From Escherichia coli O127:H6 str. E2348/69 (GTDB lineage: Bacteria; Pseudomonadota; Gammaproteobacteria; Enterobacterales; Enterobacteriaceae): DNA of 64,000 nucleotides. The stretch lies in the NCBI RefSeq assembly GCF_000026545.1, contig NC_011601.1, one strand, 5' to 3'. Numbering within the stretch: the first letter of the stretch is position 1; every line of letters starts with the position of its first letter. Of the stretch, positions 15,599-41,508 are shown piece by piece. The notes below the pieces were generated by a model that made no database searches, was not told the origin of the DNA, and saw only the letters and a list, made by a program, of their open reading frames with translations. Both the position numbers and the translations under genes were made by a program.

Positions 15599-15614
15599 CT
15601 CTTAGAAGGGCGTC

Positions 15615-15932
<318 letters not shown>

Positions 15933-15989
15933 AAAGCGTTGCATCAGGCACTATGAACAAGATGCCGGATCATGCATCCGGCAATTCAC

Positions 15990-16679: not shown

Positions 16680-16802
16680 TACTTCTCCGGTTAGTAAGAA
16701 AAAACGGAAGGAATGCTACCACTGCGAATTTAACCACTTACTGACATGGCTCACGATGTCACATATTGCACAGGCGCTGAGACTGATGACAAACACAGGA
16801 TT

Positions 16803-16895
16803 GCCTGATGCGCTACGCTTACCTGGCCTACCAGATAACTGCAATATATTGAATTTTCAAGATTATGTAGGCGAATAAGGCTTCATTCCGCATCC
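16803..16895. repeat. REP-like palindromic units at the pepE / sor boundary
   Basis: gcctgatgcgctacgcttacctggcctac and gtaggcgaataaggcttcattccgcatccgcc resemble REP consensus. Confidence 0.6.
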
Positions 16896-17059
16896 GCCAT
16901 AAACAATGTGCACTTTGCCACCAATTTGAGCGCCCCTTAAGGCGCTGATGTTTTTTTATCCTTCTCGTGCACATTGTGCCGCTTCTGCAATCAGCCGCAC
17001 ATCAGGTCGCGAAGTTGCCGCGGCGACCAGCCAGCGACATGCAGGGTTAAGTAGCGCGA

Positions 17060-18289
17060 TTAATCATGGGAAATTGCCTCTGCATGGGCGAGCAGGTATT
17101 GCTCCGCCTCACCGGACCAGATCCCCTGATGACGCGCCAGAATCGCCGCCAGTGCTTGATCCTGAATCTGCGTGAGTGACGTCAGCGGCAGGAATTTCCC
17201 GGTATACACCAGCTTTTTGCCGCCGCCGACGGCAGGCAATTCAAGCGTAGTTTCGCCCGCGGCATTCAGCCCAAGAATATGTGTTACCACTTTTGCGGCC
17301 TGCACTTTTTTCTCTTCAATCAATTTGACCGCTGCGCGCATGTCGTCGGTATTGCCGCCTGACGTGCCCACGTAGTGGGTAAATGCATAATGCACATCGT
17401 AGAAATTAATTGGCGCGCTGAAGTGCTTATCCTGCGGTCCGGCGAAGAAATTCAGACAACCATCTGTCGCCAGCAAGGAAGAGGCGAGAGTCACCAGTCC
17501 TTCATTAGGCACAAAGACGAAAATATCATCGAAGCCGTGACCGCCACTCAGTGCCATTAACGTATCAAATGCTGCATCGGCGGCATTGAGATAATGAATC
17601 AGTGTTTGCGGTTCTGATGGATAGTGCTTGCGCGCATAACTCAATTTGTCGTTGTCGGTATCGGTAATGACGAGCAGCGACGGGTTAACGGGTCCATGTA
17701 GCGCATAATCAATCGCCAGCAGCCCCATCGGGCCGGTGCCGCCGAGTATCAGCGTGCGCCCTTGCGGGCGAATCCCCATCGTGTGGTTATAACTACCTTC
17801 CTGAAGATGATAGTTGGCGTTGAACGCGCCAATCACGCAGGAAAGCGGTTCAACCAGCGAGCCTTCAAAATAGGTTTCGCCGTCGTATGCCAGCAGGCAA
17901 TCATGTTCCATGACCTCGTTGGGAATAACCACATGCGTCGCTTCGCCGCCTACCCACGGGAAGGAGTAGCCGGGGCAATCCGGGCGGTCGGGGAGTTGCA
18001 GGTTGGCCTGAATCACATAACGCTGACCCGGCTGGAATTTGTGCTGCCACTTTTTACCCACGGCCAGAATATCGCCGCAAAATTCGTGGCCGATGATGAT
18101 GGGATTGGTCGCCACATCGTCGGGTACTTTTTTATGGTTTTCACCCAGATTGGCCTCTTTCCAGGAAGAGAGGCACAGGCTGTCAGTGACCACCGTTGCG
18201 AGGATTTCATCCTCCTGCATTTCAGGAAGGTCAAAGGTTTCCAGACGCAGGTCACGTTTGCCATAAAGACGCAGAGCTGTTGTTTTCAT
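17060..18289 (-). CDS. sorE: L-sorbose-1-phosphate reductase (zinc-binding dehydrogenase family)
   Basis: Minus ORF 17060..18301; start set at MKTTALRLYG with SD aggtgg; MDR/zinc-ADH-like sequence, about 409 aa, last gene of a sor-type operon. Confidence 0.75.
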   Translation of the reverse strand: MKTTALRLYGKRDLRLETFDLPEMQEDEILATVVTDSLCLSSWKEANLGENHKKVPDDVATNPIIIGHEFCGDILAVGKKWQHKFQPGQRYVIQANLQLPDRPDCPGYSFPWVGGEATHVVIPNEVMEHDCLLAYDGETYFEGSLVEPLSCVIGAFNANYHLQEGSYNHTMGIRPQGRTLILGGTGPMGLLAIDYALHGPVNPSLLVITDTDNDKLSYARKHYPSEPQTLIHYLNAADAAFDTLMALSGGHGFDDIFVFVPNEGLVTLASSLLATDGCLNFFAGPQDKHFSAPINFYDVHYAFTHYVGTSGGNTDDMRAAVKLIEEKKVQAAKVVTHILGLNAAGETTLELPAVGGGKKLVYTGKFLPLTSLTQIQDQALAAILARHQGIWSGEAEQYLLAHAEAISHD

Positions 18290-18340
18290 AAACCACCTCA
18301 TGTTGAGCGATGGCCCCGGCAGTCGTGCCGGGGCGAAGAA

Positions 18341-19195
18341 TCAGGACAGGAAGCCCAGCGCATTGCCGATAATCCCTAAGCCAAACAGGGCGAAAATCAG
18401 CCATACCGGGTTAATTTTTTTGTTGAGCAGACGAACCATCAGTAGCGTCAGACCGAGCGCCAGCAAACCAGGGCAAAGTTGGTCGAGAATGTTCTGCACG
18501 GTCATGGTGACGGTGGAGCCATCGGCGGCATGCGTTTGTGAAACCACCAACGGTACGTTGATTGACGTCCATTTGGTCACCAGCACGCCCATCACAAACA
18601 GTCCGAGAATCGACGCGCCTTCGGTGAGTTTTTGCAGCAAATTACCGCCCATATCGCTGACGATATTCACCCCTTTGCGAAAGCCGAGTTGTAGGCCATA
18701 CCACTTCATCGCCAGACGCACCGCGTTGAAAATAAAGAAAAACAGCAGCGGGCCGAGAATGTTGCCCGAAAGTGCCAGAGATGCGCCGAGCGCGGCGGTA
18801 ATCGGGCGCAGCGTTCCCCAGACCAGTGGATCGCCAACTCCTGCCAATGGTCCCATCAGACCGACTTTGATGCCGTTAATGGTACCGTCATCAATTTCCG
18901 CGCCGTTGGCCCGCGCCTCTTCCATGGCGGCAGTGACGCCGATGACCGGGCCACATACGGCTGGCGTGGTATTGAAGAACACCAGGTGTCGCCTGAGCGC
19001 CGCAACCTGATCCTCTTTTAATGGGTAAAGTCGCTTGATGGCGGGGATCATGTCGTAGCAAAAACCCAGCCCGTGAATACGTTCAAAGTTAAAGGACGCC
19101 TGTTGCAGGTTGGAGCGCAGAAACATGCTCACCAGATCGCTGCGTGTAATTTTTCTCTGTTCCATGATGGCTCCGTTAATCATCAAGTTGGTCAA
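18341..19195 (-). CDS. sorM: PTS mannose/sorbose family EIID component
   Basis: Translation aligns with ManZ-type IID (RSNLQQASFNFERIHGLGFCYDMIPAIKRLYP, GVGDPLVWGTLRP); start may be the internal MEQRK. Confidence 0.85.
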   Translation of the reverse strand: MTNLMINGAIMEQRKITRSDLVSMFLRSNLQQASFNFERIHGLGFCYDMIPAIKRLYPLKEDQVAALRRHLVFFNTTPAVCGPVIGVTAAMEEARANGAEIDDGTINGIKVGLMGPLAGVGDPLVWGTLRPITAALGASLALSGNILGPLLFFFIFNAVRLAMKWYGLQLGFRKGVNIVSDMGGNLLQKLTEGASILGLFVMGVLVTKWTSINVPLVVSQTHAADGSTVTMTVQNILDQLCPGLLALGLTLLMVRLLNKKINPVWLIFALFGLGIIGNALGFLS

Positions 19196-19973
19196 GGGCG
19201 GTGATAGTGGTGGTCTGGGGATGTGGTTCAGCTTTACGCCACTGTGGATTTAACTGGATGTAGAGCAGGGCCATGATCACGCCGACGCCACCGAACGCCA
19301 GCAGACTGAGATCGAGGTAGCCACCTGCGAGGAAACCGAGGAAAAAGAAAGGCATCAAATATTTCACGCCCATCATGCGAAGCACCATGGCGTAACCGAC
19401 CACCACGATAAAACCGCCAGCAATCTGCAGCCCACGGGTCACAAATTCGGGAATGGCGCTCAGCATATTGCTCACCATATCAGCGCTGACGAACAGCGAG
19501 ACAATCAGTGCCGGAATAGCAACGCGCAGTGCCTGCACGCCAAGCGCGGAGACATGCAGAATATCGAGAGTGCGAAACCGTGCTTCTTCCGCTGCTTTAT
19601 CCGCCGCGTGCTGGAACACTACGGTGATGGTACGGGCAAACACCGTCAGCACCTGGCCTGCAGCAGCCACAGGCAACGCGATGGCGATTCCGGTGGCGAT
19701 GCTTTGCTGACCAACGATAACCAGAATGGCGGAGATTATGCTGGCGAGTGCAGAATCCGGAGATTGCGCCGCGCCGACGTTCATCCAGCCGAGAGCTATC
19801 AATTCCAGCGTACCACCGAGCATAATTCCGGTTTTTAAATCACCGAGAATTAAACCAATCACCGTACAGGCAATTAACGGACGATGAGTCTGAAATTCAT
19901 CCAGCACGCTGCCCATTCCGGCAATACAGGAAAAAAGAAATATAGCAATGATTTGTAGGGTACTTATTTCCAT
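19176..19973 (-). CDS. sorA: PTS mannose/sorbose family EIIC component
   Basis: 265-aa polytopic membrane protein MEISTLQIIAIFLF... with ManY-like pattern. Confidence 0.85.
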   Translation of the reverse strand: MEISTLQIIAIFLFSCIAGMGSVLDEFQTHRPLIACTVIGLILGDLKTGIMLGGTLELIALGWMNVGAAQSPDSALASIISAILVIVGQQSIATGIAIALPVAAAGQVLTVFARTITVVFQHAADKAAEEARFRTLDILHVSALGVQALRVAIPALIVSLFVSADMVSNMLSAIPEFVTRGLQIAGGFIVVVGYAMVLRMMGVKYLMPFFFLGFLAGGYLDLSLLAFGGVGVIMALLYIQLNPQWRKAEPHPQTTTITALDQLDD

Positions 19974-20038
19974 AATTTGTCACCTTTTAAGTGTCGTCAT
20001 CCCTGCCTGTTAAAGCATATGTACACAGGCGCTATTAT

Positions 20039-20533
20039 TTAATTTGCGATTAACTGTTCGTTTATTTTGTCGATAATATTGATTGAGGGATCTGACGCTA
20101 CGACGCGTAAATCCAGTATGACGCCAAGATTATTTAACTCATGAAATGCGTTAATATCATCGTCATCTAATGAAACTGCTTTGGTTAACTGTTTCTTACC
20201 AGGACGCCAGGCCATACCGCCAATATTCAGGGTACCTATTTTTACCCCCTGGCGAACCATTGCTAAGGCATCTTGTGGGCGAGTGAAAAGATAAAAAACG
20301 GTTTCGTCCTGATATTGCGGGTTGTGATAAACCGCGACGGCTTTTTCAATATTGACCACGTTAACCTTCATTCCCGGTGGCGCAGCCTGACGCAATAATG
20401 TCCGGCGAACTTCATCGTTATAAACTTCGTCATTGCAGATAATAATGCGTTGGGCGTTAGCCACTTTCGACCAGACGGTAGTGACCTGGCCGTGGATCAG
20501 GCGGTCATCAATGCGGGCGAGCGTAATGTTCAT
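20039..20533 (-). CDS. sorB: PTS mannose/sorbose family EIIB component
   Basis: 164 aa, MNITLARIDDRLIHGQVTT (phospho-His IIB motif). Confidence 0.85.
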   Translation of the reverse strand: MNITLARIDDRLIHGQVTTVWSKVANAQRIIICNDEVYNDEVRRTLLRQAAPPGMKVNVVNIEKAVAVYHNPQYQDETVFYLFTRPQDALAMVRQGVKIGTLNIGGMAWRPGKKQLTKAVSLDDDDINAFHELNNLGVILDLRVVASDPSINIIDKINEQLIAN

Positions 20534-20940
20534 CAGAAATCCTCCTCTGCTGTTGCCACCTGTCTCCAGACGACGCAGGTTTGCTTTGCGATTTGCGTCA
20601 GGTGTTCACACAGTTCATCAACATTCATGCTGTCCTGGTTATCAACCAGTTCGAGCGCCAGCGGCAGAGAAAGGCCGCTGATTACCCGCAGACGAGGATT
20701 GCGCATCGCAAGCATCGCTGCCGCATTCCACGGGCTGCCGCACTGTAAATCCACGGCGATTAGCCACTCGTCATGATTGTGAATGCTCACTAACTTCTCC
20801 AGCTTTGCCACAATGTCTCCGGCGTTCTCGCCGGGCACAAATTCAACGGCCTCGACCCTGGCATCGCCGTACACCATCTGAACCGATTCCAGCATGGCGC
20901 AGGCTAATTTGCCGTGGGCGCAAAAAATGGCATTGACCAT
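20533..20940 (-). CDS. sorF: PTS mannose/sorbose family EIIA component
   Basis: 135 aa, MVNAIFCAHGKLA... (IIA active-site His region); ATGA overlap with sorB. Confidence 0.85.
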   Translation of the reverse strand: MVNAIFCAHGKLACAMLESVQMVYGDARVEAVEFVPGENAGDIVAKLEKLVSIHNHDEWLIAVDLQCGSPWNAAAMLAMRNPRLRVISGLSLPLALELVDNQDSMNVDELCEHLTQIAKQTCVVWRQVATAEEDF

Positions 20941-20949
20941 AAAGCCTCC

Positions 20950-21756
20950 TTAGCCGCGCGTTTTGCCGCCCGCAATGTTAGTGGTTACTCCGGTGATATA
21001 GCTGGCGCGTTCAGACAGCAGATAACAAACAAAATCAGCCACTTCTGCTAATCTTCCGGCGCGCCCAATAGGAATGGCGTTTTTGGTATAGCCTTCACGC
21101 AGCTGCTCGACGGTGATATTGCGCGTCCACGCCAGCGCTTCTTCATATTCCGGCGTGCGCAGTCCTGTTTTTTCCAGAATCCCCGGTGCGATACCGACCA
21201 CACGGATACCGTGCTTACCCAGCTCTTTCGACCAGGAGCGCGTGAAGCTATTGAGCGCGGCTTTGGTCGCGGCGTAACAGCTTTGGCCTTCTGAGCCTTC
21301 CAGCCCACTTTCTGAGGAAACATTCACAATCACGCCATCATGTTGTTTGACCATCTGTCGCGCCACCGCCTGCGACATCAGAAAAACGCCTTTCTGGTTG
21401 ATATTGACCATTTTTTCGAATGCAGCTTCGTTGAGTTCATACTGCCCGGCAGGCGCTTTCTCATCGACCAGCAGACGCGGGAAATTGACCCCGGCGTTGT
21501 TAACCAGACCGTCGATGCGACCAAAACGCTGGATAATTTCTGCTACCGTATGATTTACCTCTTTGGCGCTGGAAATATCGGTCGGCCAGAACTGATAACC
21601 TTTATGGCTTTCATATTGACCATCGCCACCGTGAATATCGACCATCTGTACATTCGCGCCTTGTGCTAATAATTCATCCACAATCGCCAGACCAATACCG
21701 GATGCGCCACCGGTGACAATAATGATTTTATCCTGCAAATTTAACCACGTTTGCAT
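20950..21756 (-). CDS. sorD: Short-chain dehydrogenase/reductase (D-glucitol-6-phosphate dehydrogenase of sor operon)
   Basis: 268 aa; TGGASGIG Rossmann motif and SDR catalytic YxxxK pattern. Confidence 0.8.
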   Translation of the reverse strand: MQTWLNLQDKIIIVTGGASGIGLAIVDELLAQGANVQMVDIHGGDGQYESHKGYQFWPTDISSAKEVNHTVAEIIQRFGRIDGLVNNAGVNFPRLLVDEKAPAGQYELNEAAFEKMVNINQKGVFLMSQAVARQMVKQHDGVIVNVSSESGLEGSEGQSCYAATKAALNSFTRSWSKELGKHGIRVVGIAPGILEKTGLRTPEYEEALAWTRNITVEQLREGYTKNAIPIGRAGRLAEVADFVCYLLSERASYITGVTTNIAGGKTRG

Positions 21757-21825
21757 AACAGACTCCTGATTTTAGATAATAGGTACCCGCCGTAATTTTT
21801 ATTACGGTAAACATCGGGAAGATTT

Positions 21826-22773
21826 TTATTTCAGTAATAGTTCAGCTGTGCTGCTATTCGTTACCAGACAATTAATATATTTTCCACGCAGTGCACCAAC
21901 AATTCCGCTGTATTTTTCTTCGCTCATGGCAATGCCAATGGAATACCGTGCCTGCTTCAATTTATTCATTTCGATAGAGAGTGTTTTTTCGCTCATATTC
22001 GTTTCAACCATTGCGCCGTGAATATCAAAAAAGCGCGAGCAAATATCGCCAGCAACCTGGCGGGCATTCAGGTCGTCACTCTCTTCACCACCATAAAACG
22101 CATGCCAGTTAGCGCCGTCGCGAATGGCCGGTGAGCCAATTCCCACCAGGGCGACATCCAGATTATCCCAGTAGGCAGAGATGGTTTTAAAGTGCTGAGA
22201 CTGCATGATCCCATTACGAATTAATGGGTTATCCAGCAGAGCCGGAAAATCCGCGAGATGAGATTCCCCTTTCAGCTTCGCTGCCGCGCTGTAGGATAAT
22301 GTGTTTACGTGATAGCGGCTTTCGAGTTTACCGGACGGGCCGCCAATAATCGGCACGCAAATTAACTGCCGCGATTGCCCCGCCTGCGGCAAGTTTTCAA
22401 CCAGTGCGCTCACCGCGCGACCCCAGGAAAAACCGACAATATCGCCAGGTTCCAGCAAGCGATCCAGCAGTTGCGCGCCGTGTAACCCCATCATCGCCAG
22501 TTGAGTATCTTCATCCTCATCATTTCCTGACACCACCACAACGTCTTTCAGGCCAAACTTTTGCTTCACTTGCTGCTCCAGCCAGAGATTTCCGTTGTAG
22601 TCATAGTTGATGGCGATGGTGACAATTCCCTGATCGCGGCCTCGTTTAAGCAAGCGGCTGATGGTGGTGCGGTAAATACCCAGTTCGCGCGCAATTTGCG
22701 CCTGCGTCATATCCTGTTCGTAATAGAGTTGGGCAATCTTCACAATCAAACGGATATCGTCACTGTTTTCCAT
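21826..22773 (-). CDS. sorC: SorC-family transcriptional regulator of the sorbose operon
   Basis: ORF 21826..22857; start set at MENSDDIRLIVK with strong SD aggagg; N-terminal HTH (MTQAQIARELGIYRTTISRLL) and sugar-phosphate-binding domain. Confidence 0.8.
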   Translation of the reverse strand: MENSDDIRLIVKIAQLYYEQDMTQAQIARELGIYRTTISRLLKRGRDQGIVTIAINYDYNGNLWLEQQVKQKFGLKDVVVVSGNDEDEDTQLAMMGLHGAQLLDRLLEPGDIVGFSWGRAVSALVENLPQAGQSRQLICVPIIGGPSGKLESRYHVNTLSYSAAAKLKGESHLADFPALLDNPLIRNGIMQSQHFKTISAYWDNLDVALVGIGSPAIRDGANWHAFYGGEESDDLNARQVAGDICSRFFDIHGAMVETNMSEKTLSIEMNKLKQARYSIGIAMSEEKYSGIVGALRGKYINCLVTNSSTAELLLK

Positions 22774-23120
22774 TGCCGCCTCCTGGTTCTGCACATTTGT
22801 GCAAATACGCTTTCTCACCGCTTGATCTGATATAACCCCATCATGATGGCCTTTCAAAGCGATTTTTCACTCTTTGTATGGGGGGAAATAGCGCTTTCTC
22901 TTGCACATTTGTTTCTCTGCGTAGTAGTCATCAGCACAGGTGTGCAGCGATTCGTAATTTGTTGATTATCCTTATTTTGCCAGGCAAATTTGCATCGTAC
23001 TTCCGGAGACACTTTTGTGATAAAAGGCGTGGCAGATCACATTTAATTTCGACGTTGCCGCATAACCCTGTTTTTCCCTGCTAAGAGGTACGGTATATTC
23101 CGCGTTTTACAGGAGAATTT
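22774..23120. promoter_or_regulatory. sorC upstream and rluF promoter region with TGCACA-N2-TGTGCA inverted repeats
   Basis: Inverted repeat tgcacatttgtgca at 22789-22802 and related ttgcacatttgtt near 22900; candidate SorC operators. Confidence 0.35.
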
Positions 23121-30125: not shown

Positions 30126-32221
30126 TGAAAAAAAGACATCTGCTTAGCTTACTGGCGCTGGGCATTAGCACAGCTTGCTACGGCGAAACATATCCTGCGC
30201 CCATTGGTCCGTCGCAATCGGATTTCGGTGGCGTAGGATTATTACAAACGCCCACCGCGCGCATGGCGCGGGAAGGGGAGCTGAGCCTGAACTATCGCGA
30301 TAACGATCAGTACCGTTATTACTCAGCGTCAGTGCAACTCTTCCCGTGGCTGGAAACAACGCTGCGCTACACCGACGTGCGCACCCGGCAGTACAGCAGC
30401 GTCGAAGCGTTCTCTGGCGATCAAACGTATAAAGATAAAGCCTTCGATCTCAAACTGCGTTTGTGGGAAGAGAGTTATTGGCTGCCGCAAGTGGCGGTTG
30501 GTGCGCGGGATATCGGCGGTACGGGGCTGTTTGATGCGGAATATCTTGTTGCCAGCAAAGCCTGGGGGCCGTTCGATTTTACACTCGGCCTGGGCTGGGG
30601 ATATCTGGGCACCAGCGGTAACGTGAAAAATCCGCTCTGTTCAGCCAGTGATAAATATTGCTATCGCGATAACAGCTACAAACAGGCGGGATCTATCGAC
30701 GGCAGCCAGATGTTCCACGGCCCGGCCTCACTGTTTGGCGGCGTGGAATACCAGACGCCCTGGCAACCGCTGCGTCTGAAACTGGAGTATGAAGGCAATA
30801 ATTATCAGCAGGATTTTGCCGGAAAGCTGGAGCAAAAAAGTAAGTTTAACGTCGGGGCGATTTATCGCGTTACCGATTGGGCCGACGTTAACCTTAGCTA
30901 TGAACGTGGCAACACTTTTATGTTTGGCGTCACGCTGCGCACCAACTTTAACGATCTGCGCCCGTCTTACAACGATAACGCCCGCCCGCAATATCAACCG
31001 CAGCCGCAGGATGCCATTTTGCAGCATTCGGTGGTGGCGAATCAGTTAACGCTGTTGAAATACAATGCCGGACTTGCCGATCCGCAGATCCAGGCGAAAG
31101 GCGATACGCTGTATGTTACCGGCGAGCAGGTGAAATATCGTGATCCGCGCGAAGGGAGCATCCGTGCTAATCGGATCGTGATGAACGATCTACCGGATGG
31201 GATCAAAACGATCCGCATTACGGAAAATCGCCTTAACATGCCGCAGGTGACGACGGAAACCGATGTCGCCAGCCTGAAAAATCATCTCGCCGGAGAGCCG
31301 TTGGGCCACGAAACGAAGCTGGCGCAAAAACGCGTCGAGCCAGTGGTTCCGAAGTCCACCGAGCAGGGCTGGTATATCGACAAATCGCGCTTTGATTTTC
31401 ATATTGATCCGGTGCTGAACCAGTCGGTCGGTGGCCCGGAAAACTTTTACATGTATCAGCTGGGCGTGATGGGAACGGCGGATTTGTGGCTGACGGACCA
31501 TCTGCTGACCACCGGCAGCCTGTTTGCTAACCTTGCCAACAACTACGACAAGTTTAACTACACCAATCCACCGCAGGACTCGCACTTACCGCGCGTGCGT
31601 ACCCATGTGCGCGAGTATGTGCAGAACGATGTCTATGTGAATAACCTGCAAGCCAACTACTTCCAGCATCTGGGCAACGGCTTCTACGGTCAGGTCTACG
31701 GAGGTTATCTCGAAACCATGTTTGGCGGTGCGGGGGCAGAAGTGTTGTATCGCCCGCTGGACAGCAACTGGGCGTTTGGTGTGGATGCCAACTACGTTAA
31801 ACAGCGCGACTGGCGTAGTGCAAAAGATATGATGAAATTCACCGACTACAGCGTGAAAACCGGACATCTGACCGCCTACTGGACGCCATCTTTCGCTCAG
31901 GATGTGTTAGTGAAAGCGAGCGTCGGGCAGTATCTGGCAGGGGATAAAGGCGGCACGCTGGAGATCGCCAAACGCTTTGATAGCGGCGTGGTGGTGGGTG
32001 GCTATGCCACGATCACGAATGTTTCGAAAGAGGAGTACGGCGAAGGGGACTTCACCAAAGGCGTGTATGTCTCTGTACCGCTGGATCTCTTCTCGTCTGG
32101 CCCGACACGCAGCCGTGCGGCAATTGGCTGGACGCCGCTGACGCGTGACGGTGGTCAGCAACTTGGGCGTAAGTTCCAGTTGTATGATATGACCAGCGAC
32201 CGTAGCGTCAATTTCCGCTAA
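30125..32221 (+). CDS. yjbH: Outer-membrane beta-barrel-like protein YjbH
   Basis: 698-aa ORF with signal peptide, TAATG overlap with yjbG; fourth gene of the yjbEFGH cluster. Confidence 0.8.
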
Positions 32222-32267
32222 GTCATGGGAAAGGTGCCAGTTTTCGCACTCACTGGCACCTTCATTC

Positions 32268-32546
32268 TTAATGGCCTGTCGAGCCATCAGGAACGCAGTT
32301 CACCCCCGGTTTGCGATCTGGTGTGTAAAGGCGAAAACATTCTGTCTTCCTGTCCGTCGATATCGGTTGCAGGTCTGGTTGCCTGAGCGACTGGGCCATC
32401 ATTGGGCTGGAGACATTGCTTTGCGGTAGGTCGGTTTTATCAGCAGTATCGAGCGGACCAGCATAAGCAGGAAGAACAGAGACTGATAACATCAAAGCAG
32501 CAAAATAAGGCTTCATTTTTACCACCTTTATCAGGTTACGTTTCAT
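32268..32546 (-). CDS. yjbT: Small secreted protein (YjbT-like)
   Basis: 92-aa minus-strand ORF with N-terminal signal-like segment; gene name from recalled K-12 position. Confidence 0.5.
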   Translation of the reverse strand: MKRNLIKVVKMKPYFAALMLSVSVLPAYAGPLDTADKTDLPQSNVSSPMMAQSLRQPDLQPISTDRKTECFRLYTPDRKPGVNCVPDGSTGH

Positions 32547-32760
32547 TTGTTCCAGAGGAACATTGTCGATTTTTCGCGCATTGCTGGTGGCTGGGAATCA
32601 CCTGAATGGGTGATTTTTTTGGGCTGTGTGTTTTGCCAGATGCGACGTTGATGGGAGATGCCCACTTAATTGAGCTGAACAAAACATACACAAAAAATAT
32701 AGATCTCCGTCACATTTTTGCGTTATACAGGAAGCTCGCCACTATGAAGGAGGTACTGCT

Positions 32761-33171
32761 ATGACGTCACTCTCTCGTCCGCGCGTGGAGTTTATCTCCA
32801 CCATTTTGCAGACCGTACTCAATCTTGGCCTGTTGTGCCTCGGCCTGATTTTGGTTGTCTTCCTCGGCAAAGAAACGGTGCATCTGGCTGATGTGCTGTT
32901 CGCGCCAGAACAAACCAGTAAATATGAGCTGGTAGAAGGGCTGGTGGTTTATTTTCTCTATTTCGAATTTATCGCGCTGATTGTGAAGTACTTTCAGTCC
33001 GGTTTTCACTTCCCGCTACGTTACTTTGTCTATATTGGGATCACCGCCATTGTGCGCTTGATCATCGTCGATCATAAATCGCCACTGGATGTGTTGATCT
33101 ACTCGGCAGCGATCCTGTTACTGGTGATCACCCTGTGGCTGTGTAATTCGAAACGGCTGAAGCGGGAGTAA
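32761..33171 (+). CDS. psiE: Phosphate-starvation-inducible inner-membrane protein PsiE
   Basis: 136-aa ORF with four hydrophobic segments, [29 protein letters not shown]... Confidence 0.88.
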
Positions 33172-33264
33172 AAAAAGGCGCTCCGTGGAGCGCCGAATAA
33201 CAGTCACAAGTTGGGATAACGTAAGTTGAGGGTGCAGCGGCATAACATTGGCAGAACAACATCT

Positions 33265-34155
33265 TTAACCTTTCACACCACCTGCCGTCAGGCCGTTGAC
33301 CAGCCAGCGTTGAGCCAGCAAGAAGACGATGGTGATCGGTAATGCAGACATCACGGCAGCGGCGGCAAAGTCACCCCACAGGTAGTTTTGCGGGTTGAGG
33401 TATTGCTGCATCCCCACAGCCAGGGTGTAGCTGTTTACGTCACGCAGTAATAGCGACGCGACCGGAACTTCAGTAATGGCAGCGATAAACGACAGGATGA
33501 ACACAACCGCCAGAATCGGTACTGACAGCGGCAACAGGACAAGGCGGAAGGCCTGCCACGGTGTCGCACCATCCAGCGCCGCCGCTTCTTCCAGCGAACT
33601 GTCGATGGTTTCGAAATAACCTTTGATGGTCCAGACATGCAGCGCAATCCCACCCAGATACGCGAAAATTACGCCGCCGTGAGTATTCAGGCCAATGAAT
33701 GGAATGTACTCACCCAGACGATCAAACAACGCATACAACGCGACCAGTGAAAGTACTGCCGGGAACATCTGGAAAATCAGCATTCCTTTCAGCAGCGTCG
33801 CTTTGCCTGGAAAGCGCATACGGGCGAAAGCGTAGGCGCAGGTGGTGGAGAGCGCCACAATGCCAATCGCGGAAATCCCGGCGACCTTTACCGAGTTCCA
33901 CAGCCACAGCAGTACCGGGAATGGCGGTGGCGTAATGCGACCATCAGCCTGTTCCACGCTAAAACCTAACGCCAGTTTCCAGTGATCCCAGGAGATTTGC
34001 TCCGGGATCAGACTACCGGTCGCGAAGTTCCCCTGACGCAGCGAGATGGCGACGACCATCAGCAGCGGGAACATAATTGCCGCGATAAAAAGTAGCAGTA
34101 GCAGGTGAGTAATAAACAAACGTGCTTTTTGCGATTTCGGTTGGACCATTGCCAT
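33265..34155 (-). CDS. malG: Maltose ABC transporter permease MalG
   Basis: 296 aa; EAA permease motif region; downstream of malF. Confidence 0.93.
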
Positions 34156-34169
34156 TTTTGTTATCTCCC

Positions 34170-35714
34170 TTAATCAAACTTCATTCGCGTGGCTTTCAGG
34201 TTCACTATCGCCAGCGCGCCCACCAGCAGGAAGATCAGCGTGGCAATTGCTGCTGCCAGACCGAAGTCCTGACCCCCGCCGCCTTCAAAAGCGATACGGT
34301 AGGTGTAGTTAACAAGCAGGTCGGTATAACCGGCTGGCGTGGTCGTGCCAAGACGATCCGGGCCGCCGTTGGTTAACAGTTGAATCAGCACGAAGTTGTT
34401 AAAGTTAAATGCAAAGCTGGCGATCATCAGCGGCGTCAGCGGTTTAATCAGCAGCGGCAGCGTAATCTTAAAGAAGTTCTGGAATGGACCTGCGCCATCC
34501 ATTGCTGAGGCTTCATACAAATCGTCCGGAATCGCTTTCAGCAAGCCCATGCAGAGGATCATCATGTACGGATAACCCAGCCAGGTGTTGACGATAATCA
34601 GCATCGTGCGGGCGGTGGTCGGATCGCTGAACCAGGCGGGCTTCACGCCAAACAGCGCGCTCAACATCATGTTGATTTCACCGAAACTCTGGTTAAACAA
34701 CCCTTTGAAAATCAAGATTGAAATGAACGATGGCACCGCGTAGGGCAGAATCAGCAGGACGCGATAGACCGCTTTGCCGCGCAACGCTTCCCACTGCACC
34801 AGACACGCCAGAACCATGCCGACCGCCACCGTTAAAAAGACAGTGATCAGCGAGAACACCACGGTCCAGACGAAAATGGCGAGGAACGGTTTCTGAATGC
34901 CTTCGTCGGTAAAGACGCGGGTAAAGTTTTTCCAGCCGGTGGTCACGGTGTAACCGGGGCTTAGCTTTTCATCCCCCCAGTTACCGTCGGCGGTAATGGA
35001 TTGGTAAAAACCAATTTGGTTATTCGGCCGATATTTCACGCCGCTCTGGTTATTCGTCAACGTGCCGTCACCGTCGAGTGTGTAGAGCGGCTGCGTGCCA
35101 GAAAACTGGCGCAGGGAGCTCATCATCACTTTGTTGCCATCCGGCAGAATGGCGGTAATGTCACTCAGTGCCTGACGATTCTGGGTAATTACGCGCAGAT
35201 TCGCGCGTTCGCCTTCGGGCTGGGCGGTCGTTTCTTTCAGTTGCAGTTTTTGCTCGCCGCCAAATTTAAAAGCGTCGGAGAGGTAATTTTTGCCGGTTTC
35301 GCCGTCGCTGAGCGCCAGTTGCCACTCATCGCCCGCCGGATAAAGACCAAAATTATAGATTTTGCCTGCTTGCCAGGAGCGATCTAGCAACACTTCCTGC
35401 GCACGTTCAAAAGTCAGCTGGTTAGTGCTGCTGTAGTTGGTGAAGGCAATGGCGATGGTGCAGACCAGAGGGAAGAGGACGAATAATCCCATTCCAGCCA
35501 TTCCCGGGTAAACATAGCGCCAGGCGTAGGCTTTACGATTGGCGAAAATATACAGCCCCGCTGAGCTCAATATCAGCGTGGTAATGGCGAACAGGTATTC
35601 CCCTTGTGCGTACATTAAAACAACAAGGTAACCCACCAGCAGGCCGAGCAGACCTAACACTGACCATTTCAGCGCGTCGCTTTGCCACCAATGTTTCTTT
35701 TTAATGACATCCAT
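34170..35714 (-). CDS. malF: Maltose ABC transporter permease MalF
   Basis: ORF 34170..35729; start set at [17 protein letters not shown] (514 aa). Confidence 0.93.
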
Positions 35715-40087: not shown

Positions 40088-40134
40088 AAAACAGCTTTAA
40101 GGGGCGAAAGCCCCTCTGATTATCTGTCTCTTGA

Positions 40135-41508
40135 TCAGATCTCCTGATCAAGAGACTTCATCACCAGGTAACCCTCAACCATATCCTGAAGTCTGAACCA
40201 GCCATCCCACATGACTACCCAACCGGGGCGACCGGTGCGTTTGCTGTCATGCCATCGCCCCAGTTTCGCCAGTTTCAGACAGGCCCATTTCAGTGTCGGC
40301 ATCTGTGACGGAAGCGGTTTTCCTTCCAGCTTAACCCACAGCAGTTTCCACTCTGTCGGCGTCAGTATTTTCTCACAGCTGTCATTTTGTGTTTCTTCAC
40401 TGATACCGCCCTGCCGCAGGCCCAGCACCCGCACCGCGATAAACGCCTTGATAACCACCATGCGCTCGAGGTTATCCCGGGTCTGCATTCGCAGCGATTC
40501 CACACATGTACCACCACTTTTCCACGCCTTGTGGTATTCCTCTATCAGCCAGCGTCGCTCGTAATGGCTGACGATACGTCGCGCATCGGCGGCACTCGCC
40601 ACTTTTTCTGACGTCAGCAGATGCCAGCAGGCGCCGTCCTCTGCCTGCTCCCGGCAACAGACATACGTGAGCGGGAGCGCCTGGCCGCTGTTGTCGGGAT
40701 TTTTTATGCTGACTTCGCTGTAACTGATGAACATCCGGGCCTGGCGGGCTGCCCGCCCGCCTTTTTGCATCACATTCAGCGTGTGGCTTCCCGCGGTTGC
40801 CAGGACTTCCGGCAGTTCGAAGAGCTTGCCGGGTGCTTCTTCCAGCCGGCGATTCTGTGCTGCACGCACCACGAAGCGCTGCCCGTGGCTGACTTTATAA
40901 TGCAGGTAATGCCAGATATCCGCTTCCCGGTCACAGACAGTGATTACCCGTTTCTGTATCTCCCCCAGCCGTTCGGCCATGCGCTCCGAAGCCTGCTGCC
41001 AGCGGTAACTTTCTTTTTCTTCATAGGGACGTTCTTTTCGCTGGTGCTTAACACCGTAGGTGTCCGTGGCACGACTCCAGCGCTGCTGTTCGATAAGACC
41101 GACTGGCAGGGCGCTGTCGGGGGCGTACATCAGGACAGAGTGAGCCAGCAGCCCGCGCGTCTTCGGGTTAGTGGTGGTATTCCCCAGGTCATCAGATGCC
41201 GTACTGTGACTGAAGTTAATGGTGGTGGTGTCTTCCAGCGCGAGGAGCAGCGGATGAGCCTCACATGCCCTTACAGTGGCGGTAAATCCGGCTTCGGCAA
41301 TGGCTTGCGGGGACACAGACGGGTTACGTATCAGGCGGTACGCACCTTCAACCTGAGCAGTGGACTGGGATGATTTCACAATAGAAAGACCTGCATGCTG
41401 AGCGAGAGAAGAGGCCAGTGACACAAGGCGTCGTGTACGACGCGGATCACCGAGACGGGCATGTCCAAACTGCTCGTTAGCCCATGAATAACAATCAGAA
41501 AGTACCAT
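40135..41508 (-). CDS. IS50-like DDE transposase (Tnp_1 family)
   Basis: 457-aa ORF; N-terminal GDPRRTRRLV...EGAYRLIRNP and VCDREADI, RWLIEEYHKAWKSG motifs parallel Tn5 transposase; stop codon embedded in the terminal repeat as in IS50. Confidence 0.85.
   Translation of the reverse strand: MVLSDCYSWANEQFGHARLGDPRRTRRLVSLASSLAQHAGLSIVKSSQSTAQVEGAYRLIRNPSVSPQAIAEAGFTATVRACEAHPLLLALEDTTTINFSHSTASDDLGNTTTNPKTRGLLAHSVLMYAPDSALPVGLIEQQRWSRATDTYGVKHQRKERPYEEKESYRWQQASERMAERLGEIQKRVITVCDREADIWHYLHYKVSHGQRFVVRAAQNRRLEEAPGKLFELPEVLATAGSHTLNVMQKGGRAARQARMFISYSEVSIKNPDNSGQALPLTYVCCREQAEDGACWHLLTSEKVASAADARRIVSHYERRWLIEEYHKAWKSGGTCVESLRMQTRDNLERMVVIKAFIAVRVLGLRQGGISEETQNDSCEKILTPTEWKLLWVKLEGKPLPSQMPTLKWACLKLAKLGRWHDSKRTGRPGWVVMWDGWFRLQDMVEGYLVMKSLDQEI

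Follow-up and report, generated by a model that had tools for sequence, protein, structure and literature searches.

Between psiE and malG, the chromosome of Escherichia coli K-12 carries xylE, which encodes the XylE proton symporter; in E. coli O127:H6 str. E2348/69, psiE is followed directly by malG. This locus raises the question of whether E2348/69 lost xylE or K-12 gained it, and of what the short sequence left between psiE and malG represents. We analyzed a 64-kb stretch of the E2348/69 chromosome (64,000 nucleotides; hereafter, the window) that contains the locus.

The psiE–malG junction in the window and in K-12

The features at the junction are as follows.

32761-33171, plus strand: psiE, phosphate-starvation-inducible protein, 136 aa (open reading frame list; NCBIfam NF002767, 288.9 bits, full length)
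33170-33174, no strand: point at which K-12 and other xylE-positive E. coli have the 1,797-bp cassette (blastn breakpoints; ambiguous within a shared 5-nt A-run)
33170-33194, minus strand: Rho-independent terminator of malEFG/MalH, GGCGCTC, loop CACG, GAGCGCC (33194 to 33177) and U7 (33176 to 33170)
33170-33272, minus strand: MalH small RNA, counterpart of K-12 malH b4807 (4242531-4242633) by annotation and identity
33172-33264, no strand: psiE–malG spacer, 93 bp from stop codon to stop codon
33265-34155, minus strand: malG, maltose ABC transporter permease, 296 aa (open reading frame list; NCBIfam equivalog NF008231, 609.9 bits, full length)

The psiE and malG genes are convergent, with stop codons at 33169-33171 (TAA, psiE) and 33265-33267 on the minus strand (malG). 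malG is the last gene of malEFG, and malF and malE lie next on the minus strand. The psiE stop codon runs straight into A7, the complement of the U-tract of the malG/MalH terminator. The spacer is wholly malG 3'UTR, and it corresponds base for base to the K-12 sequence from the malG stop codon to the 3' end of MalH. PsiE of the window showed 100% amino acid identity to K-12 PsiE.

The preliminary description of this DNA had given a 93-bp spacer containing the string aaaaaaggcgctccgtggagcgcc and had pointed out that xylE was missing from it. Spacer and string were found as described, and the absence of xylE was confirmed by alignment with K-12 and by tblastn of the window. In detail, the alignment with K-12 revealed no remnant of xylE or of its promoter in the 93-bp spacer, and tblastn of the full 64 kb yielded no XylE-like coding sequence (best E = 3.9). 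The RefSeq annotation of E2348/69 likewise places psiE and malG next to each other, and its junction region was 100% identical to the window.

That description had also placed xylE between psiE and malG in K-12, which proved right. The annotation of MG1655 (NC_000913.3) runs psiE (b4030), xylE (b4031, minus strand), malH (b4807, minus strand) and malG (b4032), and neither annotation nor alignment showed a direct psiE–malG junction in K-12. When the psiE–malG intervals were aligned, K-12 carried 1,797 bp more than the window (4240739-4242535). By blastn, 32676-33174 of the window corresponded to K-12 4240240-4240738, and the window from 33170 onward to K-12 from 4242531 onward. At the left breakpoint, K-12 reads GAGTAAAAA and then GTCAGC; at the right breakpoint, it reads GAAAG and then AAAAAAAGGCGC; the window reads GAGTAAAAAAAGGCGC. 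The additional 1,797 bp consist of the hairpin terminator of xylE, xylE itself and a 276-bp AT-rich region upstream of xylE (promoter region), and this cassette is bounded by A5 and A7 direct repeats. Around it, psiE, MalH and malG are collinear and 98-100% identical between K-12 and the window, and the MalH region with its terminator is identical base for base. In K-12, it is the terminator of xylE that abuts the psiE stop codon, whereas in the window it is the terminator of MalH. The GC content at third codon positions (GC3) of K-12 xylE was 0.54, versus 0.63-0.67 for malG, malF and psiE, a difference that speaks for a gain of xylE.

About 10 insertion/deletion differences, including xylE, separate the window from K-12, so the xylE difference is locally unexceptional. 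Outside the junction, the window was 99.94-100% identical to the E2348/69 assembly, except for one extra IS element. The other differences from K-12 and related records are listed here in order of position.

5683-5706: no arpA (RefSeq espL4; 2.5 kb in K-12) between aceK and iclR
10410-11427: two hypothetical open reading frames in about 1 kb after metH, versus 195 bp in K-12
13126-15934: IS3-family IS1397 between yjbB and pepE, interrupted by a 1,374-bp IS110-family element
14241-15614: this nested IS110-family element (transposase open reading frame 14522-15598), absent from E2348/69 assembly CP059840.2, so that the window stems from an isolate or assembly that differs slightly
16769-23086: a 6.3-kb L-sorbose PTS operon (sorE, IIA-IID, SDR oxidoreductase and regulator) between pepE and rluF, absent in K-12 and present in two other direct-junction genomes examined
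32618-32676: upstream of psiE, 57 bp unrelated to the 112 bp with REP-like palindromes in K-12; the difference is located 85-143 bp ahead of the psiE start codon, where it could extend into the promoter region
40124-41674: IS4-like ISEc13 between lamB and malM, inside malK-lamB-malM, which may be polar on malM
42734-42748: yjbI is absent; it is a pseudogene in K-12, and its equivalent is annotated as an intact SopA-family protein in other direct-junction genomes examined
50419-50553: yjbL-yjbM are absent
about 52043-53031: qorA, annotated as frameshifted in the matching E2348/69 record
55662-57246: pnuC and an AAA ATPase gene between alr and tyrB
58515-64000: after tyrB, a second 2-oxoglutarate dehydrogenase cluster (E1 component, odhB, lpdA), which K-12 does not have at this position

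The malG terminator and MalH

On the plus strand, the junction reads A7 (33170-33176) followed by the stem-loop GGCGCTC/CGTG/GAGCGCC (33177-33194). On the minus strand, this amounts to a 7-bp stem (6 GC pairs), a 4-nt loop and T7, which the terminator scan recognized as an intrinsic terminator. The scan found no terminator on the plus strand, where the hairpin is followed by GAATAACAG with no T-run. The hairpin had been described as bidirectional. The hairpin itself was borne out, but the U-tract exists on the minus strand only, and without a T-run on the plus strand the word "bidirectional" is unsupported by the sequence. K-12 psiE likewise lacks a U-tract after its own hairpin.

The terminator pattern by itself was no better than chance, with one found versus 1.2 expected in shuffled sequences. 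We nevertheless judged the terminator to be real because of its conservation, its covariation and the annotation of malH in K-12. A hairpin with a T-run was present downstream of malG in 66 of the 80 species loci listed in the scan for MalG relatives (see below). In a stem alignment of 36 sequences, all 203 cells were paired (100%), although the outer four pairs were fixed by the extraction pattern and carry no weight as evidence. Double-sided compensatory changes, spread over several genera, occurred in two of the seven pairs and in 11 of 29 distinct sequences, where CG/UA became GC/CG or AU; the two switching pairs are among the three unconstrained inner pairs of the stem. The hairpin was also present in the minimum-free-energy fold.

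Escherichia albertii, Citrobacter koseri, Enterobacter, Leclercia and others have, as does the window, a conserved MalH-like 3'UTR and a GGCG..CGCC hairpin whose T-run extends to the psiE stop codon. Differences from the window in this group concern the 5' UTR portion, which is of variable length and in some species contains REP-like or other inserts, and the middle stem pairs, which are swapped from CT/AG to GC/GC.

MalH of the window comprises the last malG codons, the stop codon, the 3'UTR and the terminator, and is identical to K-12 MalH over the full 103 nt, seed region included. The blocks GCC(A/G)CTGCA(A)CCCTCAACTT and ACTTGTGACTGT were conserved across genera. A scan of 32000-34500 (E <= 1) matched no Rfam family, and the identity of MalH therefore rests on the K-12 annotation and on sequence identity. 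Folding z-scores for the whole RNAs were unremarkable (-0.93 for MalH and -0.90 for the psiE 3' end), and the terminator hairpin is the only robust structure predicted in the folded MalH and psiE 3' end.

Distribution of the two gene orders and direction of change

We searched 5,426 complete E. coli genomes, and the locus was matched in 5,425. The contiguous psiE–malG junction was found in 1,786 of the 5,426 genomes, and the K-12 xylE segment in 3,639 (3,641 places, nearly always as one copy). This is a presence/absence polymorphism of an accessory gene at a fixed chromosomal site, with both states common in E. coli. The xylE difference is ordinary and already reported; the observation itself is confirmed.

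arpA sequence was present in 4,105 of the 5,426 genomes versus 3,639 for xylE, so the absence of xylE is not limited to one phylogroup. The window represents an arpA-negative lineage with the direct junction, and we take the absence of arpA to be a B2-type marker. ECSC054, like more than 60 further genomes that match it without a difference over 3 kb, has the direct junction, retains arpA intact and lacks yjaA. These phylogroup placements were based on the states of arpA and yjaA near the locus alone, in place of formal typing. The order in O157:H7, which we assume to be phylogroup E, is psiE-xylE-malG, with the cassette at the K-12 site.

To see the locus in other species, we scanned for MalG relatives using one genome per species. 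The scan listed 80 loci, with only two non-coli Escherichia species among them; E. fergusonii, Salmonella, Shigella and the remaining named Escherichia species did not appear in the list. The loci listed fell into the following classes.

52 of 80: direct convergent malG-psiE junction, about 75-345 bp
6 of 80: xylE between malG and psiE
4 of 80: another insert between malG and psiE
1 of 80: xylE present, beyond psiE
17 of 80: no psiE within the locus

The 52 direct junctions among the 80 loci span Citrobacter to Yersinia, Hafnia and Edwardsiella. The 93-bp spacer of the window recurs, with 1-3 substitutions, in E. albertii and Escherichia sp. MOD1-EC7003, and in both the terminator T-run enters the psiE stop codon as in the window (TTTTTTTA-CTCCCGC). 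The same overlap of T-run and psiE stop codon was seen in Citrobacter koseri, Enterobacter, Leclercia, Phytobacter and others. Because E. albertii, MOD1-EC7003 and most of the Enterobacterales listed show the direct junction, we read K-12 as carrying an insertion. The signs that would mark a deletion (the gene at the outgroup site, or remnants or scars) were not found for the xylE-free junction. For the family, the direct junction is most likely the ancestral state, and at the root of Escherichia it is the most parsimonious one. We conclude with good confidence that the window holds the xylE-free allele of a common polymorphism, probably in the ancestral gene order, and that K-12 gained xylE.

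A published reconstruction leads to the same polarity. In PMC6896753 (Gonzalez-Alba et al., BMC Genomics 2019), xylE is a sugar-uptake/transport gene acquired within the E/B1/A lineage; the gain is placed in the A/B1 sublineage, and genomes of the phylogroup B2 type are without xylE.

Five species of the Citrobacter freundii complex and Klebsiella oxytoca also have xylE between malG and psiE. In each, the psiE stop codon is adjoined by the same xylE terminator as in K-12. The xylE genes of K-12 and Citrobacter were 83% identical at the nucleotide level versus 82-83% for malG, and third-position identity was 0.56-0.61 for both. Since xylE is as diverged as malG, the cassette is old. A recent transfer of xylE between genera was considered and rejected on the same grounds.

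The malG-side junctions are unlike one another. In Citrobacter, the cassette follows directly after the terminator; in E. coli, there are about 60 additional nt; and in K. oxytoca, a psiE remnant and about 190 nt precede the xylE upstream region. These unlike junctions argue for at least two independent insertion events. In K. oxytoca (locus L040, about 9180-9600 and 11069-11123), a duplication of the last 15 nt of psiE borders the xylE insert (TTATTCGCGTTTCAG / TTACTCGCGTTTCAG), and the junction beside the duplication is otherwise identical over 22 nt to the direct junction of Raoultella. The 15-nt duplication is an insertion scar. A test for a psiE 3' remnant was significant in K. oxytoca. 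Applied to K-12, where a decayed remnant was sought in the segment of about 60 nt that separates the MalH terminator from the Citrobacter-like part of the xylE upstream region, the same test was not significant (p = 0.33).

The foremost alternative is that the Escherichia ancestor had xylE and that repeated precise losses regenerated an ancestral-looking junction. Lineages B2, D-like lineages, E. albertii and others would each have lost the gene separately, either by recombination between the flanking A/T runs or by receiving a deleted allele through homologous recombination. The A5 and A7 repeats flanking the K-12 cassette could give an excision indistinguishable from the ancestral state, and we therefore kept this explanation in consideration. 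It also gains from the same-site xylE of the Citrobacter freundii complex and K. oxytoca, whose divergence agrees equally well with old residence and later repeated loss and with old transfer. In addition, K-12 shows no imported sequence beside the cassette, its MalH region being identical to that of the window; both observations count against a gain. However, at least four independent base-perfect events would be needed (in E. albertii, in MOD1-EC7003 and in the arpA-negative and arpA-positive lineages), with many more losses across genera, versus one gain. The K. oxytoca scar shows that the cassette can insert into a pre-existing direct junction, and the published reconstruction cited above (PMC6896753) calls xylE a gain. 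Furthermore, the sole clear deletion at the locus, in E. coli PCN061 (L092, 2296-3282), was IS1-mediated and untidy. There, an IS1-associated deletion between pgi and malG removed yjbE through xylE, including psiE, and left 282 bp of the xylE upstream region adjoining MalH and malG; the junction of the window is clean by contrast. Taken together, repeated precise loss seems unlikely.

It is less probable still that xylE was relocated elsewhere in the genome or replaced by a divergent copy. The 1,786 genomes with the direct junction and the 3,639 with xylE add up to the 5,425 in which the locus was matched, so the two states seem to exclude each other and xylE is essentially confined to this location (3,641 places in 3,639 genomes). 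The window itself held no XylE-like open reading frame, and from the genome counts xylE is most likely absent elsewhere in E2348/69 as well. An assembly artefact or a laboratory deletion specific to the isolate is effectively refuted, because 1,786 independent complete genomes share the junction and other Escherichia species have it too, even though the IS110-family element that the window has in addition to CP059840.2 indicates some variation among assemblies or isolates of this strain.

Consequences and comparison with known systems

A gain of xylE by K-12 from the ancestral direct junction, which we favor, would have proceeded as follows. In the ancestor, psiE and malG would have been convergent, with the U-tract of the malG/MalH terminator abutting the psiE stop codon. 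A cassette of 1.8 kb, made up of xylE with its promoter region and its own terminator and bordered by short A/T runs, would then have inserted between the psiE stop codon and the U-tract in K-12, O157:H7 and other xylE-positive genomes. Strains with the allele of the window would have no XylE proton symporter. Gene order, breakpoints, allele frequencies, outgroup states and the identity and conservation of MalH with its terminator are established by the data; the direction of change, the mechanism of insertion and the physiological consequence are what we infer from the comparisons above. The genes xylFGH were found in 5,419 of the 5,426 genomes (nearly full length in 5,405); being nearly universal in E. 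coli, the ABC transporter XylFGH, besides XylE the other uptake system known for D-xylose, is almost certainly kept by xylE-free strains.

The K-12 gene order is accordingly no default for E. coli: about one-third of complete genomes, including EPEC E2348/69, probably never had xylE at this position. The point deserves attention whenever xylose phenotypes or metabolic models of K-12 are carried over to B2 or D strains. The spacer should not be treated as empty intergenic sequence but annotated as the MalH small RNA and the terminator of malG. Beyond correct annotation, the importance of the difference is small.

Two further readings are speculative, and we give the pair only a slim chance. In xylE-free lineages, the transcript of PhoB-regulated psiE might read through, antisense to MalH and malG, given that the psiE 3' hairpin is without a U-tract. 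If so, phosphate starvation would modulate the expression of MalH and of the maltose transporter by convergent transcription. In K-12, the only strain in which MalH has been studied, this coupling of psiE and MalH would have been removed when xylE inserted. The related reading is that the malG-psiE terminator junction might be a recurrent integration site for sugar-utilization cassettes in Enterobacteriaceae. The inserts observed at the junction were xylE, whose junction structures are of at least two kinds, then a LacI/PTS cassette and an HAD + LysR pair, and this varied cargo suggests that the convergent terminator junction tolerates insertions. It should be mentioned that the second of these inserts, in Citrobacter sp. 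18056 (L018, 8891-13624), encodes a LacI-family regulator, asparaginase_2, a glucosamine-6-P isomerase-like protein and PTS EIICB, and that the third, in Enterobacteriaceae bacterium RIT691 (L010, 8891-10666), encodes an HAD hydrolase and a LysR regulator.

A literature search found no paper treating xylE, psiE and malG together. With regard to the lineage-specific gains reported in PMC6896753 (xylE, mng and bgl), the polarity agrees with our reading. The junction, the overlap with the MalH terminator and the same-site xylE of Citrobacter and Klebsiella are not described there. That report gives a gain in A/B1, whereas we found xylE also in O157:H7; if the latter belongs to phylogroup E, the gain predates the A/B1 sublineage or xylE spread there later.

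According to PMC8081044 (Iosub et al., RNA Biol 2020/21), the malEFG transcript gives rise, at the end of malG, to MalH, a stable 3' fragment of 104 nt. MalH base-pairs with the ompC and ompA mRNAs and lowers MicA, and thereby favors the expression of LamB. The stability of the processed fragment, the binding of Hfq and the repression of ompC, ompA and MicA were determined experimentally, in K-12 only. The predicted MalH of the window agrees with K-12 MalH in position, composition and sequence. The two differ in their surroundings: K-12 MalH has xylE downstream, whereas the 3' end of MalH in the window abuts the convergent psiE.
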